From: a virus
Strand: one strand, 5' to 3'
DNA length: 6,165 bases
IMG/VR virus record: IMGVR_UViG_3300009609_000022
Span: 1 to 6,165 of that record
Each line of letters opens with the position of its first letter. Position 1 is the stretch's first letter. The notes beneath the pieces are model-generated. The model worked only from the letters and a program-made list of their open reading frames with translations. It was not told the origin of the DNA and did no database searches. The position numbers and the translations under genes were made by a program. Below are positions 1 to 6,165 of the stretch, piece after piece.

Positions 1-123
1 GGGCGAATGGGCCACAGCAGAAAACTTCGCCACCCAGGAGCGCGGCACCGGGAGCATTACTCCGGTCTCGATGGGCGGGGGCGGGTCATGTCCCGCAGAC
101 ATTCCGCTTCCGAAGGGGCTCAC
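1..123. repeat. Terminal direct repeat, copy 1 (identical to 6043-6165). Marks circular closure of a 6042-bp unit.
   Basis: The string gggcgaatgggccacagcag...cttccgaaggggctcac is present at both window ends with offset 6042. It lies inside one continuous ORF, so it is an overlap of a circle (or tandem copy), not an LTR or IS end. Confidence 0.95.
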
Positions 124-235
124 GTTCACGTATAGCGGCTTCTGCTACGTCGCGGACGGTGTGCGCCCTGCTCTGCTCGCGGTTGGGTGGCTGCTCGCGG
201 CCCTGATCGTCGTGGGCGGTTTCAAGGGGGAGTAG
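2..235 (+). CDS. 3' portion of the pIII-like adsorption/minor coat protein gene that starts at 4796 (wraps around the circle).
   Basis: The reading frame continues without a stop from 4796 through 6165 (=123) to TAG at 233-235. The C-terminus ...SCPADIPLPKGLTFTYSGFCYVADGVRPALLAVGWLLAALIVVGGFKGE ends in a hydrophobic membrane anchor, as in pIII-type proteins. Confidence 0.85.
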   Translation, partial: GEWATAENFATQERGTGSITPVSMGGGGSCPADIPLPKGLTFTYSGFCYVADGVRPALLAVGWLLAALIVVGGFKGE

Positions 236-239
236 ATCG

Positions 240-521
240 ATGGCGCTTCCCTTCGCTGGTTGGCTCCTGGCCGGTGCGATCCCTCTCGTCAAAAAGGCGC
301 TGATAGGTATCGGCATCGGCGTCATTACTTACGAGGGCGTGACTCAGGCGCTGAACTACGCCCGCGACCAGGTTGTCGCGTCCTGGGGGTTGTTGCCTGG
401 GAACGTCGCCCAGGTGCTTGCGCTCTTCGGCTTCAATGAGTTCTTCGGTATCGTCCTGGGTGCGATAGCGGCGCGTGCCGCGTTCACTGCAGTCGCCAGG
501 TTCGGCCGCATCACTTCATGA
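240..521 (+). CDS. pVI-like minor coat / membrane protein (DUF2523-like, the Ace position of CTX-type phages).
   Basis: 93 aa and very hydrophobic (AGWLLAGAIPLV, IGIGIGVI, VLALFGFNEFFGIVLGAIAA). It sits immediately upstream of, and ATGA-overlapped with, the Zot/pI gene, the conserved inovirus position. SD-like aaggggga lies upstream of ATG 240. Confidence 0.7.
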   Translation: MALPFAGWLLAGAIPLVKKALIGIGIGVITYEGVTQALNYARDQVVASWGLLPGNVAQVLALFGFNEFFGIVLGAIAARAAFTAVARFGRITS

Positions 522-1744
522 TCACGCTTATCACCGGGGGCAACGGGCTCGGTAAGACGGCCCTTGCTCTCTCGATGGCGCTTGAAGAAAAGGCGCGACC
601 GCTCTACGTGGTCGGCGTGAAGGATCTGTGCATACCGCATGAAATCGCGCCACCGATAGAGGAATGGACGGAGGTGGTTGATGATCCTTCTTACGTCGGC
701 GGCAAAAAGCTACGCTTCACGTTCCCGCCTAATTCGCTCATCATCATCGACGAGTGCCAGAGCATCTACCGGCCCAGGGCCGCGAGCTCGCGCGTTCCTG
801 ATTATGTGGCCGCGTTCGAGACGCATCGGCATGAGGGGCTGGACTTCTGGCTGATCACGCAGCATCCAGGGCTCCTGGATGCCAACGTGCGGAAGCTCGT
901 CCGGCGGCACATTCATTTGCGCGACACCTGGGCGGGCCGAAAGCTAATCGAGTGGCCCGAGCTCGGCGATCCGGAGTCCAGGGCTTCGCGTGAGCTCGCG
1001 GCGCAGCGGCGCTACAAGCTGCCGCGTCACGTTTTCGATAAATACACTTCGGCCCAGGTGCACACCAAGCTGCAGAAGCGGGTGCCCTGGTATGTGTATG
1101 TGTTTTTCCTGATGGTGTTTGTTTTCTTGGGTCTGATGGTCTACATCTATCGGAACATCTCCGCGAAGCTTGAGCCGGTGGCGGCGAGCTCTTCCACCAA
1201 GGCCTGGGCCAAGAAAGACGCGGGTTCGAGCTCGAGCGCGAGCGCGGGCGGGAAGGGTGCGCCGCTTACTCGCGCTCAGTGGGTTGCAGAGCGTGAGCCC
1301 AGGTTACCGGGGATTCCTCATACGGCGCCGGTCTATGACAAGGCGATGGAGGCGAGGGTGGCGCCTTTCCCGTCCGCTTGCGTTGTTCTCAAGGGCAAGT
1401 GCGGGTGCTATACGGATCAGGCGACCAGGCTGCATCTCCCTGATACCGTGTGTCGCGACATCGTTGCTAACGGTTTCTTCAATCCTACCGGTGTCGGTCG
1501 CGCCCGGGCTCATGGCGCGATCGGTGCGCCCCCCGTCGTCGCGCCGGTTTATGCGCCCCCTGTCGCGCCGGTTCCGGCCCCGAGCTCGCCGGCGCAGCCC
1601 GTTGCCGGTGAGGTCTATCACACCGGAGCTCCTGGCGGCTTCGAGATGGGGCCACCTGTCGGTGGTGGCGGATCGGGAGCGGGTGGCGGGTCTCAGGCGC
1701 CTGCGGCGCTGCCTGAACGCGCTTTTTCGCGTGGCGGGCACTGA
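518..1744 (+). CDS. Zot-like / pI morphogenesis (assembly) P-loop ATPase.
   Basis: Walker A GGNGLGKT (aa 7-14, nt 536-559). Walker B LIIIDECQ (aa 74-81, nt 737-760). Single TM segment PWYVYVFFLMVFVFLGLMVYIY (about nt 1085-1150). Then a periplasmic part with a Cys motif (CVVLKGKCGCYTDQATRL...C) and a Pro/Ala/Gly-rich tail. The start overlaps the upstream stop (ATGA at 518-521). Confidence 0.9.
   Translation: MITLITGGNGLGKTALALSMALEEKARPLYVVGVKDLCIPHEIAPPIEEWTEVVDDPSYVGGKKLRFTFPPNSLIIIDECQSIYRPRAASSRVPDYVAAFETHRHEGLDFWLITQHPGLLDANVRKLVRRHIHLRDTWAGRKLIEWPELGDPESRASRELAAQRRYKLPRHVFDKYTSAQVHTKLQKRVPWYVYVFFLMVFVFLGLMVYIYRNISAKLEPVAASSSTKAWAKKDAGSSSSASAGGKGAPLTRAQWVAEREPRLPGIPHTAPVYDKAMEARVAPFPSACVVLKGKCGCYTDQATRLHLPDTVCRDIVANGFFNPTGVGRARAHGAIGAPPVVAPVYAPPVAPVPAPSSPAQPVAGEVYHTGAPGGFEMGPPVGGGGSGAGGGSQAPAALPERAFSRGGH
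1538..1573 (+). repeat. 12-nt exact direct repeat gtcgcgccggtt at 1538-1549 and 1562-1573 (24-nt period) within the pI C-terminal tail.
   Basis: It is in frame and encodes VAPVYAPP / VAPVPAPS, a proline-rich octapeptide duplication. Confidence 0.8.
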
Positions 1745-1767
1745 CCCACCTCGTAGACAGCGCGGCC

Positions 1768-1986
1768 TCACCTGTGGCGGCTCCGGTGGCGGCCTCTCAA
1801 GGCCAACCGGCTCATTGAGCGTTCGAGGGCATCCGCCTTTTCTGCTTTGATCTTCGCGGCGACGTTCCAGTACTTGATGTAGTATCGTCCGCGCCAGGAG
1901 CTCGGGTCGAAGCCTACTCTTTCCACCCATTCCTCGACTTCGCGGACTGTGACCTGCGGACTATCGGGCCACAATTCGAACTGCAT
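1768..1986 (-). CDS. Hypothetical 72-aa basic protein, distal gene of the minus-strand regulator operon.
   Basis: The ATG at 1986 lies 13 nt after the regulator stop (2000-2002). The sequence is non-repetitive and protein-like (MQFELWPDSPQVTVREVEEWVERVGFDPSSWRGRYYIKYWNVAAKIKAEKADALERS...) with an Arg/His-rich tail, and the third codon position is mostly G/C. No family was recognised and the SD is weak. Confidence 0.5.
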   Translation of the reverse strand: MQFELWPDSPQVTVREVEEWVERVGFDPSSWRGRYYIKYWNVAAKIKAEKADALERSMSRLALRGRHRSRHR

Positions 1987-1999
1987 CGCGCCAGCGATG

Positions 2000-2341
2000 C
2001 TATGCGGGCTTCATGTTTTTGTCTGTCAGGAATTCTCTGATGAGGGCTGTCAGGCGGTGCCTGAGCCATTTGACATAATATACAGTGACCCGCGTCATGT
2101 TCTGCGCGGCCTCAGCGGAGGGGAGCGTCTGCCAGGTGAGGAATGCCCCCGTTATCGTCACCAGGCACATCTTTCCCAGGAGCTTCAGTATTGCGGCCAT
2201 GTTGTCCGTTGATGGTTTCGTGATGCCGTTGCGCATCTGCGACACCGCACTGGCCGTCACTCCGAGGTACCGCGCGAGCTTGTTTCCGCTGCCCGCTTTC
2301 TCTATGGCCGCCGCTACGATCGGCTTGTAGTCGAACTTCAT
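2000..2341 (-). CDS. Cro/CI (Xre)-type HTH transcriptional regulator (putative phage repressor / immunity factor) with an atypical roughly 55-aa C-terminal extension.
   Basis: The N-terminal 55 aa carry a classic HTH: GSGNKLARYLGVTASAVSQMRNGITKPSTDNMAAILKLL. The gene is divergent from the rep operon. A G-run SD (gggggg) lies 7 nt upstream of the ATG on the minus strand. The C-terminal half (MCLVTITGAFLTWQTLP...VYYVKWLRHRLTALIREFL) is not part of a normal Cro fold. Confidence 0.8.
   Translation of the reverse strand: MKFDYKPIVAAAIEKAGSGNKLARYLGVTASAVSQMRNGITKPSTDNMAAILKLLGKMCLVTITGAFLTWQTLPSAEAAQNMTRVTVYYVKWLRHRLTALIREFLTDKNMKPA
2068..2095 (-). other. dif-like site (candidate attP for XerC/XerD-mediated integration).
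   Basis: The minus strand reads ACGCGGGTCAC TGTATA TTATGTCAAAT. E. coli dif reads GGTGCGCATAA TGTATA TTATGTTAAAT. The central region matches 6/6, the XerD arm 10/11 and the XerC arm only 2/11. It is an AT-rich island in a GC-rich gene. Confidence 0.65.
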
Positions 2342-2444
2342 TTTTCGGCCCCCCTGGTTGACTGGGTTTAGTGTCCCTTACCCCGTCTTCGTTGACAAGG
2401 GTTTAGCGATGCTTTAGGGTTAAGCATCGCTTGGGGGGGGCCGA
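2342..2444. promoter_or_regulatory. Divergent promoter/operator region between the regulator and the rep operon.
   Basis: TTGACAA at 2392-2398 reads as a -35 on both strands. On plus, TTGACA with a 17-nt spacer leads to TAGGGT at 2415-2420. On minus, TTGTCA with a 17-nt spacer leads to GACACT at 2375-2370. There are three GGGTTWAG boxes (2364-2371, 2399-2406, 2417-2424) and a direct repeat GTTGAC-N2/3-GGGTTTAG (2357-2371, 2391-2406). An 11-bp inverted repeat ttcggcccccc / ggggggccgaa (2344-2354 / 2435-2445) brackets the region. Confidence 0.6.
2405..2431. promoter_or_regulatory. Perfect 10-bp-arm palindrome (candidate operator) whose 7-nt spacer is the rightward -10.
   Basis: agcgatgctt (2405-2414) and aagcatcgct (2422-2431) are exact reverse complements. 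The loop tagggtt contains the proposed -10 TAGGGT. Confidence 0.6.
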
Positions 2445-2708
2445 ATGGCAAGGATGGGGGGTAAGGCGCGGGCTGAGGCGGATCAGCTTCCGCTGTTTGA
2501 CAATGAGCCACCGTTCGCCTGGTCGCTCGGTTCACCCCTTGTCCTGCCCCCCGCTACCGGCGCCCCCGGCGCCGGGGCGGGGGGGCGGCAAGGGCTTTAC
2601 GTCCCAGTTACACGTAAAGATAGTGCCACCGGTGACACTCGGCCCCTTCCGATCTCCCAGGGCTTCTGCCCCCTGTGCGCGGTATTCGGGCGCTGCCTGG
2701 GCTGCTGA
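2445..2708 (+). CDS. Hypothetical 87-aa protein, first ORF of the rightward operon. The C-terminus has CPLC-x5-CLGC. Coding status is uncertain.
   Basis: The ATG at 2445 follows a G8 run, and its leader GGGGGGCCGAA mirrors the leader of the divergent regulator gene. The third codon position is mostly G/C by eye. Against coding: there is a low-complexity PPATGAPGAGAGG stretch, and several strong DNA palindromes lie inside it that could instead be an origin. Confidence 0.4.
   Translation: MARMGGKARAEADQLPLFDNEPPFAWSLGSPLVLPPATGAPGAGAGGRQGLYVPVTRKDSATGDTRPLPISQGFCPLCAVFGRCLGC
2557..2639 (+). other. Cluster of three DNA palindromes/hairpins: candidate replication origin and/or packaging signal.
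   Basis: (1) ccggcgcc-ccc-ggcgccgg, 8-bp GC stem, 2557-2575. (2) ctttacgt-N9-acgtaaag, 8-bp stem, 2595-2619, in a local AT-rich island. (3) An 18-bp imperfect palindrome agtgCcaccggtgAcact at 2622-2639. All lie just upstream of the rep gene, in the only extended region not covered by a confidently called gene. Confidence 0.4.
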
Positions 2709-3718
2709 TCGTGTCCGCTCTGCCGCTATTCGTGGACTGGTTGACGATGCGGCAGGATCATCCCGAAGGCGGCTTGCCAGTCCTCAACGGCGGGCACGTT
2801 ATGGCCGTGGACAGCGACGGGGCTGTCGAATGGCACACCGATCGGCGGCTCGGCTTCGAGGGGTCGTTCGACTCCCGCGTCGAGCTCCGTTGCGATGGCT
2901 ACTCGGTGGAGTTCTCCGGGAACATCGCTCGCTACAACCGGCGAGATAACCTGTTCGGCTACACCTGGCCGGAGACGATCTACCGGGTTAACTCGCTTCT
3001 CAATCTTTTTTCACTTCCACCGTTCACGTCCGGGAAGCTTTTCCGGTTCGCTGACAAAGGATGGACATGGACCGGTGCCAGGGCCTCACGTATCGACATT
3101 ACCGTGAACTATTCCTGTTCCACTGCCGATGCACTGGCCGCACTCATGCGCTCACTATCGGGGCACCACATCGGCAGGCAGAAGGGCAAGTTGTCTCCCG
3201 ATGGTATGACCGTGGAATACGGGCGGGGCTCCCGTTATGTGTACGGCAAGTTCTACTCGAAATCGGCGGAGCTCGTGGCGCACCGCGGTCGCAAGTCCGG
3301 CGCGCACGTTGACCAGGAGGTCGTTGATTTCTGCGACCGCCTCGGCGTCGGGCGCGAGGAATTCACGCTCAAGAGCCGGTTCCTCACGCAGAACAATCTC
3401 GCTTACCTGGGCGGGATCACACACGAGGCGCTTGTCTCGGTCTACTACCACCGCTCACAGCTACGGAGGTTGGGCGCCGTGAAATACGAAAGCTTGGAAG
3501 GGCTGCCGCGCCATTTGCGGGCGACGTATTGCTGCTGGCGCGATGGAATGCCGCAGCAGATCAGCAGGCGCACGCTCTACCGGCACCGCGCCGCGCTACT
3601 CGAATATGGCGTGGACATATCCATTCCATCGAACGTGCGCTCTATGCCGATCAAGGTGCGCCAGGTGGAAGTAGCCGCGCTCGAAGCGCCGTCCTGGTAT
3701 CTGCGGAAGTTCGGTTGA
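2675..3718 (+). CDS. Rolling-circle replication initiation protein, filamentous-phage gpII / CRI family.
   Basis: The N-terminal signature FVDWLT...GG.V..VDSDGAVEW......FEGSFDSRV.....G..VEFSGNIARYNRRDNLFGY is typical of the gpII/X (CRI) family, and the gene sits directly upstream of the gpV-like gene. The start is uncertain. 2675 is a GTG. GTG 2711 lies 2 nt after the ORF87 stop. GTG 2732 would give the MDWLT N-terminus typical of the family. Confidence 0.85.
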   Translation: MRGIRALPGLLIVSALPLFVDWLTMRQDHPEGGLPVLNGGHVMAVDSDGAVEWHTDRRLGFEGSFDSRVELRCDGYSVEFSGNIARYNRRDNLFGYTWPETIYRVNSLLNLFSLPPFTSGKLFRFADKGWTWTGARASRIDITVNYSCSTADALAALMRSLSGHHIGRQKGKLSPDGMTVEYGRGSRYVYGKFYSKSAELVAHRGRKSGAHVDQEVVDFCDRLGVGREEFTLKSRFLTQNNLAYLGGITHEALVSVYYHRSQLRRLGAVKYESLEGLPRHLRATYCCWRDGMPQQISRRTLYRHRAALLEYGVDISIPSNVRSMPIKVRQVEVAALEAPSWYLRKFG

Positions 3719-3781
3719 TTTCATCGCGCCTGGATTCGCCGCCCAGGATCACGCGTAAACAGGCGACAAGGAGCTAACAGC

Positions 3782-4078
3782 ATGGCAACGGAAACGGTGA
3801 AGGTGATGGGTGTGAAGTTCTTCAAGGGCACGATTGACGACAAGGCAATCGATAGCGGCAAGATTTTCGTAGAGGAAGCGCTTGACTTCACGCGGGGAAC
3901 CGCGAAGGGCTACGCCAGCCAGGAATACGCCCTGGGCAATGCGGAGGCGGCGCAAGTGTTGATGAAGCTCGAATTTCCGCTCATGGCGGTAGTCGAGTTC
4001 CAGCGCGTTACGAACGGCGACACCAGCAAGAACGTCGTCATGAGCGTGCGGCCTGCTGATGTCAAGAAGGCGGCGTGA
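3782..4078 (+). CDS. Putative ssDNA-binding protein (gpV position).
   Basis: 98 aa, soluble, directly after rep and before the coat gene, with a strong SD aaggag at 3769-3774. The call rests on size and synteny only; no motif was recognised. Confidence 0.6.
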   Translation: MATETVKVMGVKFFKGTIDDKAIDSGKIFVEEALDFTRGTAKGYASQEYALGNAEAAQVLMKLEFPLMAVVEFQRVTNGDTSKNVVMSVRPADVKKAA

Positions 4079-4139
4079 TGCATTCGGCTGTTTTTCCCGT
4101 TGGGCCGAGTCTGTGAAGGAACGGGGAAGGAGTGAAGGG

Positions 4140-4343
4140 ATGAAACCCCTCATTGGTCTATACGTGTTGGTGTGCTCGCTGTTCACCTGGTTGCTTCCGG
4201 CCCCTGCGCTGGCGGCGGTTCCTGCTGCCGTGACCACGGCGATCAGCGATATGCAAGCGGACGCGCTCACGGTCGCGACGGCGTTCCTGGTCGCCACGAT
4301 CGTGGTCATCGCGTTCCTGTTCATGCGCAAAGGCGCGCGCTAG
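4140..4343 (+). CDS. Major coat protein precursor (gpVIII-like).
   Basis: 67 aa. Signal peptide MKPLIGLYVLVCSLFTWLLPAPALA, then a roughly 42-aa mature peptide. The mature peptide has an acidic N-terminus (SDMQAD), a hydrophobic core (LTVATAFLVATIVVIAFLF) and a basic DNA-binding tail (MRKGAR). SD gaaggag lies 8 nt upstream of ATG 4140. The upstream in-frame ATG at 4059 overlaps the gpV-like gene and lacks an SD. Confidence 0.85.
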   Translation: MKPLIGLYVLVCSLFTWLLPAPALAAVPAAVTTAISDMQADALTVATAFLVATIVVIAFLFMRKGAR

Positions 4344-4362
4344 GGCAGGGGAGGGCTGCGGC

Positions 4363-4719
4363 ATGGGCTACGTCGTGAACACTCGATGCCTGATTGATGT
4401 TCAGTCGGCGCACGATTACCACTACGGGTCCATGCCGCACGCCTACTCGCACGATGATGTGAGCACGTATGAAGTGGCCTACGTGCAGAGCTCGACGGTT
4501 GGGCGGAGCTCGGATTCCGGGTGGTCGCGGCAGACGACGGCATACCCGCTCGGCGGCGGATCGGTGACGGGGACGTCCTATATCGACCTGGACGCGCTCG
4601 CGTTTCCCTCTTGTGATCCAGCCGAAAGTTTTCTCGATGGCGTTGCGGTCGCCTGGGGATTCGGCGCGGCGCTCGTCATGGTTGCGTGTCTCAAGCTCAT
4701 GTCGAAGGGGGCCAGGTGA
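4363..4719 (+). CDS. 118-aa C-terminally anchored protein with a coat-like tail (putative minor virion protein).
   Basis: SD aggggaggg lies upstream of ATG 4363. There is no signal peptide. The N-terminal 90 aa are polar and rich in His/Tyr/Ser. The C-terminal TM GVAVAWGFGAALVMVACL is followed by KLMSKGAR, mirroring the coat tail FLFMRKGAR. The stop overlaps the next start (TGATG at 4717-4721). Confidence 0.6.
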   Translation: MGYVVNTRCLIDVQSAHDYHYGSMPHAYSHDDVSTYEVAYVQSSTVGRSSDSGWSRQTTAYPLGGGSVTGTSYIDLDALAFPSCDPAESFLDGVAVAWGFGAALVMVACLKLMSKGAR

Positions 4720-4799
4720 TGGAGTTCGACGCTTATTTTCTGATCGGCTTCGGCGGCACGATTCTCGTTCTTTGGGCGGCGGCGGGCTGGTGGTCATGA
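4719..4799 (+). CDS. 26-aa hydrophobic micro-protein (pVII/pIX-like minor coat candidate).
   Basis: MEFDAYFLIGFGGTILVLWAAAGWWS. It is too short for the ORF track. It is translationally coupled at both ends: ATG overlaps the upstream TGA at 4717-4721, and its TGA overlaps the next ATG at 4796-4799. It sits immediately before the pIII-like gene. Confidence 0.55.
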   Translation: MEFDAYFLIGFGGTILVLWAAAGWWS

Positions 4800-6165
4800 A
4801 AAAAGCTTGCCAGGATTCGCCAGGAGCGCGCCGCGGTCGGTCGTTGATGCCGTGGTATGTCGGTTTTTTCGAGTGGGCGAGTCTCGCGTTTCTTTTCGGG
4901 CTCCTGGTCGCGCCGTCGATTTCGTTCGCCACCTTTCCGGCGAGCTCGCCGCCGTCGCCGATTAATCGCAGCACGAACGGCGTTTACTCGTATACGTGGA
5001 ACCCGTGGGCGGGGTGCTCTGCAAGTGGGACGAAAAGCTCTGTCGGTGAAGTTCGGGCATTGACACAGGCATGCGCGAATGCCAACGGTGAGTTCGGCGG
5101 GCAGACGGGCACAGTGAATCCTCATACTTCGACGCAGTTTGTCGAGATTTATTTCGAGAATACGAATCGCCAGGTGAACATTACTTCACCCTGGGCGGCG
5201 TGTCCTGCGGGCTACACCGTGACCGGCACTGGCGCGAATTACGCCACGTGCACGGCTAACGCGGGCTCGCTCACGTGTCCTTCTAATGCAACCCTTAGCG
5301 GAAGTGATTGCAATTGCAATGCGAATTTTGTGCAGCAAGGGGCCGGCGCGGGAGCTACGTGCCAGGCGCAGTCGAGCTACTGCCAGGACTTGTCGACGAC
5401 GGGAACGGGCAAGACGACCATCACCACGTTCGTGGGCTATGACACGAATGGCGACGGCCTGGCTGATGTGTCGAGCGGCATCGGCTTCGGATCGCGCAAC
5501 GCGAACGGCTGCAAGGCGATTCTCGCGTTGATGGACCCTCAAAATTGCTTCAGCTACGACGACGCGCCCACGAAAATCTATTGCACTTCGACGTTCAGCT
5601 ACACGGGTGACGTTGCCACCGGTGGCGATCCGGGGCCTGATACGCCGAACGGATCGAATCCATGCCCGACTGGTCAGGGGCTCGCCCAGGTCAACGGGAT
5701 TTCCCGTTGTCTGCCCACTGGGGGGCCGCCCACGATTGCGCCCGCTCCCGCGACTACTCAGCAGACCACCGGCACCGTCACGAATGGCGACGGTTCCACG
5801 ACGACGACGACGACGACCACGAACGGCACGACGACGACCACGCAGACCACGAATTGCAACGCCGACAAAACTCTGTGCACCACGTCTACGACGTCTACGC
5901 AAAGCGGCGCGTCTACCGGGCAGGCGGGGAACAGCGACCAGGCGCAGTTCTGCCGAGACAATCCCACGGCTGCGATGTGCAAGCCGGTCAACGATTTTTG
6001 CGCTCAACCGGAGAATGCGGGCAAGGTGCAATGTCTTGACCAGGGCGAATGGGCCACAGCAGAAAACTTCGCCACCCAGGAGCGCGGCACCGGGAGCATT
6101 ACTCCGGTCTCGATGGGCGGGGGCGGGTCATGTCCCGCAGACATTCCGCTTCCGAAGGGGCTCAC
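4796..6165 (+). CDS. pIII-like adsorption / minor coat protein, 5' portion. The gene continues through the circular junction to 235, for 493 aa in total.
   Basis: I translated codon by codon from ATG 4796 (alternative in-frame ATG at 4847) and found no stop before the window end. Signal peptide ...WASLAFLFGLLVAPSISFA. The ectodomain is Cys-rich (about 20 Cys). A Thr/Gly-rich linker reads GSTTTTTTTNGTTTTTQTTN...CTTTSTTSTQ. The C-terminal anchor is in 2-235. It is absent from the ORF track because it runs off the end. Confidence 0.85.
   Translation, partial: MKKACQDSPGARRGRSLMPWYVGFFEWASLAFLFGLLVAPSISFATFPASSPPSPINRSTNGVYSYTWNPWAGCSASGTKSSVGEVRALTQACANANGEFGGQTGTVNPHTSTQFVEIYFENTNRQVNITSPWAACPAGYTVTGTGANYATCTANAGSLTCPSNATLSGSDCNCNANFVQQGAGAGATCQAQSSYCQDLSTTGTGKTTITTFVGYDTNGDGLADVSSGIGFGSRNANGCKAILALMDPQNCFSYDDAPTKIYCTSTFSYTGDVATGGDPGPDTPNGSNPCPTGQGLAQVNGISRCLPTGGPPTIAPAPATTQQTTGTVTNGDGSTTTTTTTTNGTTTTTQTTNCNADKTLCTTSTTSTQSGASTGQAGNSDQAQFCRDNPTAAMCKPVNDFCAQPENAGKVQCLDQGEWATAENFATQERGTGSITPVSMGGGGSCPADIPLPKGL
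5798..5848 (+). repeat. Threonine-codon microsatellite-like tract: (ACG)5 ACC ACG AAC GGC (ACG)3 ACC ACG CAG ACC ACG.
   Basis: Read directly from the sequence. It is in frame with the pIII-like gene and encodes TTTTTTTNGTTTTTQTT. Confidence 0.9.
6043..6165. repeat. Terminal direct repeat, copy 2 (identical to 1-123).
   Basis: Same evidence as copy 1. Confidence 0.95.

Follow-up and report, generated by a model that had tools for sequence, protein, structure and literature searches.

The window, a stretch of 6,165 nucleotides of viral DNA (positions 1 to 6,165 of the IMG/VR record IMGVR_UViG_3300009609_000022), is the complete genome of an inovirus with the standard inovirus gene set. Its gene for a helix-turn-helix (HTH) regulator harbours, in its 3′ part, a dif-like attP half-site in which the central region and the XerD-binding arm can be recognized whereas the sequence at the XerC-arm position is unrelated to XerC arms. 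This attP-like site is non-random; the finding is real, and the site is probably functional. The 17 bp TGTATA-TTATGTCAAAT are likely to be the functional attP core of an integrase-less inovirus of the RSS0 type, which would use the XerC and XerD recombinases of its host. We infer integration of the window phage itself from its relatives and from the geometry of the site.

On the minus strand, positions 2095-2068 read ACGCGGGTCAC-TGTATA-TTATGTCAAAT, which is ATTTGACATAA TATACA GTGACCCGCGT on the plus strand. The elements of this region are as follows.

2068-2078, minus strand: predicted XerD-binding arm of attP, TTATGTCAAAT, matching the E. coli arm at 10 of 11 positions.
2079-2084, minus strand: central (crossover) region TGTATA, the same as in canonical dif; predicted site of strand exchange.
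2085-2095, minus strand: XerC-arm position, ACGCGGGTCAC, unrelated to XerC arms (2 of 11).
2000-2341, minus strand: HTH regulator of 113 amino acids (Pfam HTH_3, 31.4 bits; PHROG repressor families).
2000-2067, minus strand: last 22 codons of the regulator and its stop codon, predicted from the site geometry to be replaced by host sequence on integration.
1768-1986, minus strand: ORF72, an open reading frame (ORF) of 72 amino acids that starts 14 nt past the regulator stop.

An earlier note on this DNA, made from the sequence alone, had reported a dif-like sequence at 2068-2095, and our analysis confirmed it: the central region and XerD arm match the corresponding part of E. coli dif, TGTATATTATGTTAAAT, at 16 of 17 positions, with one mismatch. 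The half-site is the sole match in the window when up to three mismatches are allowed, and none of 200 dinucleotide-preserving shuffles gave any, which bears out the claim that the 17-mer exceeds chance expectation. The AT-rich island in GC-rich coding DNA described in that note is also real, the G+C content of the 17-mer being 18% as compared to 61.7% for the whole genome. At the XerC-arm position, the window agrees with GGTGCGCATAA at 2 of 11 positions, as had been claimed, and with the betaproteobacterial consensus nnTnCGCATAA at 2 of its 8 specified positions (hand count). Finally, the statement that no integrase or transposase is encoded held when ten ORFs were compared with Pfam and PHROGs: integrase, transposase and recombinase families gave no match for any of them. 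The 28-mer is read in frame from codon T83 of the regulator, its final base is the first base of codon W92, and 22 codons are left after it.

Of the IMG/VR contigs, 73 contain the exact 17-mer, and their length is mostly 4-15 kb. A good XerC arm precedes it in 21 of these contigs, which represent either a host dif or the junction of a XerC-armed phage, and a regulator ORF runs through the site in none of the 21. In 20 of the 73 contigs, the site is spanned by an ORF matching a profile of the regulator HTH domain, and here the XerC arm is unrelated in every case (20/20). All 20 regulator ORFs run in the XerC-to-XerD direction, with the site 0-52 codons ahead of the stop codon, and all seven circular contigs (L018, L038, L040, L051, L054, L070 and L084) belong to this regulator group. 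The direction is the same at all 22 regulator-embedded loci, and the three possible reading frames are all in use through the site (VYYVK, LYIMSN and CILCQI), so that it is the DNA which is conserved and not the peptide. The 20 other members display 18 different arms at the XerC position, without any arm consensus and with none resembling a XerC arm; at most, a weak C-(A/T)-C preference is visible beside the central region (hand count). An attP within the regulator gene is thus the rule for this module and not an oddity of the window phage. The earlier note had regarded the location of the site in a coding gene as unusual, which was not borne out, given the 22 loci that share it in one direction.

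Some relatives are integrated, and their junctions can be read. In L075, a prophage of 7.7 kb, the two junctions are directly oriented. Its positions 102-129 read ACTTCGTATAA-TGTATA-TTATGTCAAGT, that is, host XerC arm, central region and phage XerD arm, and positions 7595-7622 read CTGAGGTGCAC-TGTATA-TTATGTCAAAT, that is, phage arm, central region and host XerD arm. The regulator of L075 stops one codon past the second site, and the first gene past the first site gave a weak, sub-threshold match to DUF3653 (17.7 bits for a cut-off of 22.4). Between this XafT-like gene and Rep, at 505-2475, the prophage carries cargo that includes a Vsr mismatch endonuclease and a C-5 cytosine methyltransferase. 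The second case, L082 (Xanthomonas, IMG/VR 2870168456), shows 98% identity to the XacF1/Cf1c backbone and contains one XerC-armed and one XerD-armed phage in tandem. The XerD-armed phage extends from ACTTCGCATAA-TGTATA-TTATGTCAAGG to its regulator, followed by CGCGCATAGTC-TGTATA-TTATGTCAAAT and host flank. Within L082:1-13427, two XacF1-like backbones, 98% identical over 3.8 kb, are inverted around a dif-like site at 6282-6309; as one is XerC-armed and the other XerD-armed, the same backbone carries both opposite attP/regulator modules.

TGTATA is present at both junctions of L075 and of L082. The phage arm agrees with the host XerC arm at 3 of 11 positions in L075 and at 2 of 11 in L082 (hand count), which is the chance level and indicates that the XerC arm is truly absent in this class and not host-specific. 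In the integrated relatives the regulator is truncated, ending 6 amino acids past the site in L019, L029, L067 and L082 and 1 amino acid past it in L075. The Xanthomonas prophage L029 also has an internal ATTTCGCATAA-TGTATA-GAGGGTGGGTA (XerC arm and central region only), in reverse complement at about 2190-2220, so that the two kinds of half-site may coexist in a single element. The opposite half-site was also found in L003 (L003:7281-16130, on a 95-kb Joint Genome Institute contig), an integrated relative whose Rep is 67% identical to that of the window. Its left junction is TAATTGCATAA-TGTATA-CAAACGCCATT and its right junction, just past zot, is AAGTTGGATAA-TGTATA-TTATGTTAAAT; from these sequences, its attP has a partial XerC arm and no XerD arm. 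The Rep relatives L003-L014 mostly carry other lysogeny modules, such as a tyrosine integrase (Castellaniella), a resolvase (L007) or the opposite half-site of L003.

We scanned species-representative genomes for the exact 17-mer, in fixed 8-kb blocks, and obtained at least 120 loci. These blocks cut ORFs near their edges, which is why the regulator profile had no match there. In 64 of the 120 matches listed, the 17-mer follows a canonical XerC arm, defined as CGCATAA with one mismatch allowed, and forms a complete dif. Among the matches listed, the genomes with a complete dif are mainly from Gallionellaceae, Sideroxydans, Nitrotoga, Nitrosomonadales, Methylophilaceae and Burkholderiales, and the gammaproteobacterial ones are from Rhodanobacteraceae and Steroidobacteraceae. 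Many Betaproteobacteria and Xanthomonadales thus have a dif with exactly the central region and XerD arm of the window. The best relatives of the window Rep (60-72% identity) come from the Betaproteobacteria Sulfuritalea, Georgfuchsia, Oxalobacter, Castellaniella and Nitrosomonas; they point to a betaproteobacterial host, and the distribution of the 17-mer in dif sites agrees with this apparent affinity. The genome L156 (Gallionellales bacterium GWA2_54_124, 1.25-Mb contig) shares the half-site TTGAATTCAAA-TGTATA-TTATGTCAAAT and its downstream flank with the IMG/VR contig L073, where the half-site is regulator-embedded; the L156 block ends 170 nt from the site.

In many Burkholderiales, still among the matches listed, the 17-mer follows non-canonical arms of the types nnnCGCGACGA and A(G/C)T(T/A)GATACGA (L091, L095, L135, L137, L163, L175, L194; L133, L142, L152, L178, L185, L189, L205), in genera such as Rubrivivax, Pseudaquabacterium, Acidovorax, Ramlibacter, Caenimonas and Brachymonas. 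These may be lineage-specific XerC arms. Arms of this sort, e.g. A(T/A)(G/C)CGCGACGA or AGTTGATACGA, raise the question of whether the window does have a XerC arm, one that matches the unusual arm of its own host and makes the site a full, two-armed attP of the VGJ type. Indeed, ACGCGGGTCAC agrees with ATGCGCGACGA at 6 of 11 positions (hand count). However, this score is the best among several G+C-rich variants and close to the chance level, and none of the four innermost positions agrees. The diversity of the arms among the other members, none of them XerC-like, and the chance-level agreement between host and phage arms in L075 and L082 also speak against a hidden arm, which we regard as very improbable. 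In the window, the two good arms of a VGJ-type site are not found, the XerC position matching at 2 of 11; a TLC-type site is ruled out as well, the conserved arm being on the XerD side.

Inovirus attP sites can also be assembled from single-stranded DNA, as the literature on CTX-phi shows, and a folded single strand of the window phage could pair the half-site with an inverted partner into a complete XerC/XerD target. A XerC-arm-like 11-mer, GGGGCGCATAA, with one mismatch to the E. coli XerC arm, does occur at 1559-1549 on the minus strand, inside zot. This 11-mer is nevertheless direct and not inverted, and lies 520 nt away. Moreover, no inverted repeat involving 2068-2095 was found, and the site is unpaired in the fold predicted for the single strand at 1990-2180, whose stability is unexceptional (z = -1.1). 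We give this alternative almost no credit and have rejected CTX-like folding for the window, in view of the missing inverted partner and the unremarkable fold. The 11-mer itself was also discarded as a XerC arm: 19 of 200 shuffles contained one as good, it has no adjoining central region or XerD arm, and it is probably there by chance.

The closest parallel is RSS0 (Restivirus). Its attP lies at the 3′ end of the reverse-oriented regulator gene ORF13, its attL and attR have been located experimentally at the dif site of Ralstonia (PMC3816273), and integration shortens ORF13 by 26 amino acids, from 156 to 130 (PMC3816273; PMC4471427). The statement in the earlier note that Ralstonia RSS phages have an att site in a regulator ORF was therefore correct. 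In the RSS0 record, the coding strand of ORF13 reads CAGGTCAACGA-TTTATC-TTATGTAAAAT, i.e. unrelated arm, central region and XerD arm, with 24 codons left. Both phages are inoviruses of betaproteobacterial type, have no integrase and encode a reverse-oriented HTH regulator with attP at its end in the same orientation, followed by 24 codons in RSS0 and by 22 in the window. The two regulators share the same order of an HTH, a hydrophobic stretch of about 15 amino acids, P-x-AEAA, the site and a basic tail; the window protein has its HTH at the N terminus, PSAEAA as the motif, codons T83-W92 as the site and a tail of 22 amino acids. The window protein, putatively a repressor and immunity protein judging from its sequence, aligns with RSS0 ORF13 over its HTH alone (BLASTP, E = 5e-5, 38% over 47 amino acids). 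In contrast to the window, RSS0 has TTTATC-TTATGTAAAAT, which fits the Ralstonia dif, another reading frame through the site, and a regulator of 156 instead of 113 amino acids. In the RSS0 record, the annotated genes of the module end with the regulator, no ORF72-like ORF appears downstream in the ORF listing, and the two backbones are not closely related.

A 17-bp 'left-armed' attP (XerD arm and central region) with a repressor alongside has also been described in PM2 and CTX-I phages (PMC12715192). In this module, attP is flanked by the repressor (P16/RstR) and by a XafT homologue (P15), all within a single leftward operon, and the repressor and accessory genes become the prophage termini (PMC12715192). 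The window resembles it in having the XerD arm and central region next to an HTH repressor, with a small accessory gene after them. In the 'left-armed' module, the accessory gene is a DUF3653/XafT homologue, whereas that of the window is ORF72, without detectable DUF3653 similarity. The gene order in the PM2 record is an HTH gene, a small ORF with the site and a DUF3653 gene; the PM2 site is located in this separate small ORF b and that of the window inside the repressor ORF. The hosts of the 'left-armed' module are Gammaproteobacteria.

TLC-phi of Vibrio cholerae is likewise integrase-less, with a half-site attP made of one good arm and the central region, and its XafT, encoded next to attP, activates XerD without FtsK. 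It is the mirror image of the window phage, since the arm retained in TLC-phi is that of XerC and the missing one that of XerD, the reverse of the window; XafT of TLC-phi is an HTH and DUF3653 protein, and none is encoded in the window. The Xanthomonas phages XacF1, Cf1c and phiLf and the relative L003 are integrase-less inoviruses found at dif, with the same TGTATA core as the window, but they keep the XerC arm and central region, the opposite half-site. Such XerC-armed Xanthomonas phages form the tandem array with a XerD-armed phage in L082. VGJ-phi and CTX-phi are also inoviruses exploiting XerCD at dif; the former has two recognizable arms and the latter builds its site from folded single-stranded DNA, neither of which applies to the window. 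The claim that the site fits no described class thus holds for the three Vibrio classes whose mechanism has been studied (CTX, VGJ and TLC) but not in general, the half-site being known in RSS0, PM2 and CTX-I. The window site belongs to the RSS0-type or 'left-armed' module and is not a new class. The earlier proposal of a phage of the integrative mobile elements exploiting Xer (IMEX), hijacking host XerCD, is well supported by the relatives and is the probable reading for the window phage itself.

Integration can be pictured as follows. Host XerD would bind its arm on the double-stranded replicative form and, by analogy, its cooperativity would bring XerC to the unrelated arm. The XerCD complex would pair attP with a chromosomal dif carrying the same 17 bp, and strands would be exchanged over the identical 6-bp central region, probably by XerD first. 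By analogy with XafT in TLC-phi and XafV in VGJ-phi, activation would probably come from a phage factor instead of FtsK. One product would be a perfect dif, composed of the host XerC arm, the central region and the phage XerD arm, and the other a copy of attP. One predicted junction is ...CATGACGCGGGTCAC-TGTATA-TTATGTCAAAT joined to non-phage sequence, and the other is the host XerC arm and TGTATA joined to TTATGTCAAATGGCTCAGGCAC; the host dif would agree with TGTATATTATGTCAAAT in the central region. The regulator would keep residues 1-91, its basic tail of 22 amino acids giving way to host sequence. ORF72 would be cut from the repressor promoter and land beside the regenerated dif, and the Zot-like ATPase would be the last backbone gene before the ORF72 end of the predicted prophage.

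ORF72 is a candidate accessory factor for Xer recombination, a hypothesis drawn from its position only, and is probably co-transcribed with the regulator. It has 17 homologues in 1.84 billion representative proteins, with a conserved core of about 50 amino acids, DLFGE-PVT--EV--WVE---G----SWR--YY---WNV--KIRA-K. Its AlphaFold model consists of three helices and is confident (predicted local distance difference test score, pLDDT, 79.7). The family profile gave no match in Pfam or in PDB sequences, the model gave none among PDB folds or in BFVD, and no DUF3653 match was obtained among 16 ORF72 relatives. A profile of the family matches 10 of the study loci; in 9 of the 10, a dif-like 17-mer is found within about 50-130 bp or less of the gene, which points away from it. 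In the window, L018, L070 and L032, where the half-site is regulator-embedded, the family member lies on the side of the XerD arm, and in L164, L066, L023 and L097, which have full sites, it lies on the side of the XerC arm; L060 is also among the loci with an ORF72-family gene next to a dif-like site. As all loci scanned for the family had been chosen for containing the 17-mer, the association is suggestive and not an unbiased statistic. The same slot holds a DUF3653 gene above the Pfam cut-off in L054 and an annotated DUF3653 gene in PM2, with sub-threshold matches in L075 and L040. In TLC-phi and VGJ-phi, the genes next to attP encode proven Xer activators, XafT (PMC6744903) and XafV (2026 preprint), respectively. 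We tentatively raise the idea that the ORF72 family represents new Xer accessory factors unrelated to DUF3653 (XafT/XafV) and that the attP within the repressor gene is a built-in switch, while considering it rather unlikely.

Several points weigh against the view that the half-site is a functional, XerCD-dependent attP. An integrated copy of the window phage was found nowhere in the collections searched, and the phage-specific junction 18-mer GACGCGGGTCACTGTATA is absent from IMG/VR. Exact-product look-ups gave only two records of the window phage, both circular metagenome contigs 100% identical to the window and possibly from one dataset, which are thus not independent evidence. XerC would have to act on an arm that matches at 2 of 11 positions. 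The dif sites to which the 17-mer was matched are those of candidate host groups. ORF72 has no detectable similarity to XafT or DUF3653, with no Pfam match even at E values up to 1. Finally, the regulator profile used in the survey was partly built on sequences that it recovered (8 seeds; 14 of the 22 matches are independent), and the window regulator is itself a seed.

The recovery of circular copies only, together with the failure to find an integrated one, would suit a phage that stays episomal, in which the half-site binds Xer proteins without integration and serves to resolve multimers of the replicative form, in the manner of cer and psi, or merely to bind XerD. Plasmid resolution sites, though, keep both arms and need accessory sequences. 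Members of the module (RSS0, L075 and L082) are integrated at dif with hybrid junctions, and recombination at the site would in every case interrupt the repressor gene, a placement that a resolution role does not readily explain. An episomal role is in our opinion improbable. The missing integrated copy and the seemingly complete degeneration of the XerC arm could also mark the site as a relic, left by an earlier excision or recombination event, that is decaying and has no present function. Against decay, the 17 bp are intact and A+T-rich within G+C-rich coding DNA, and at least 20 phages that are otherwise diverse have these 17 bp at the same position of the gene, with all three frames in use; such recurrence implies selection on the DNA and not on the protein. 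The chance that the site is such a relic appears slim, and a functional attP core remains the reading that we favour.

The window represents a circular genome of 6,042 bp, bases 1-123 recurring exactly at 6043-6165. Besides the regulator and ORF72, it contains the following features.

240-521, plus strand: g6p-like minor coat protein (DUF2523).
518-1744, plus strand: Zot-like assembly ATPase (Pfam Zot, PHROG 197).
About 2342-2445, no strand assigned: divergent control region between the regulator and the replication genes, with putative operators.
2445-2708, plus strand: ORF of 87 amino acids.
2747-3718, plus strand: rolling-circle Rep, gII-like (Pfam Phage_CRI and G2P_X_C).
3782-4078, plus strand: protein of 98 amino acids in the slot usually held by the single-stranded DNA-binding protein.
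4140-4343, plus strand: major coat protein (Coat_B).
4363-4719, plus strand: ORF of 118 amino acids.
4796 to 235, spanning the junction, plus strand: large g3p-like ORF.

The Pfam and PHROG matches of the ten ORFs are to inovirus backbone families and to the HTH alone, three small ORFs being without match. ACG/ACC-rich short repeats at 5797-5907 code for a threonine-rich linker of the g3p-like protein. Whole-genome DNA search against 50,697 phage records revealed no near-identical phage, and the regulator gave no tblastn match in the same records. Searches with the regulator and ORF72 against 5.8 billion clustered proteins returned self-matches only.

In the control region (2342-2444), the motif GGGTT(T/A)AG occurs three times, two copies reading GGGTTTAG and one GGGTTAAG. 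The region also includes a perfect hairpin of 10 bp (2405-2414 / 2422-2431) and, on either side of 80 nt, a perfect inverted repeat of 11 bp, TTCGGCCCCCC / GGGGGGCCGAA. These motifs, hairpin and inverted repeat may be operators or origin elements; no match to the sigma-70 consensus was found in this region. The best imperfect direct repeat of the genome (1739-1777 and 2083-2121, 28 of 39 positions matching) is of marginal significance, 12 mononucleotide shuffles having given 25-27 matches. It brackets a 344-bp segment comprising ORF72, the regulator tail, the XerD arm and the central region, and its second copy begins where the central region meets the unrelated arm. By analogy with the change from RSS0 to RSS1, this marginal repeat could mediate loss of the segment.

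The window adds an uncultivated, minimal 6-kb phage of apparent betaproteobacterial affinity to the IMEX that integrate by no more than a XerD arm and central region. The survey shows that a half-site in the tail of a regulator gene is a common and stereotyped design and no quirk of RSS0. If the proposal made above for ORF72 is true, its family would let XerCD recombine a half-site that lacks a XerC arm. The switch, if it exists, would have two states: the episome would produce the full-length repressor with ORF72 co-transcribed, whereas the prophage would produce a tail-less repressor and have ORF72 uncoupled from the repressor promoter.

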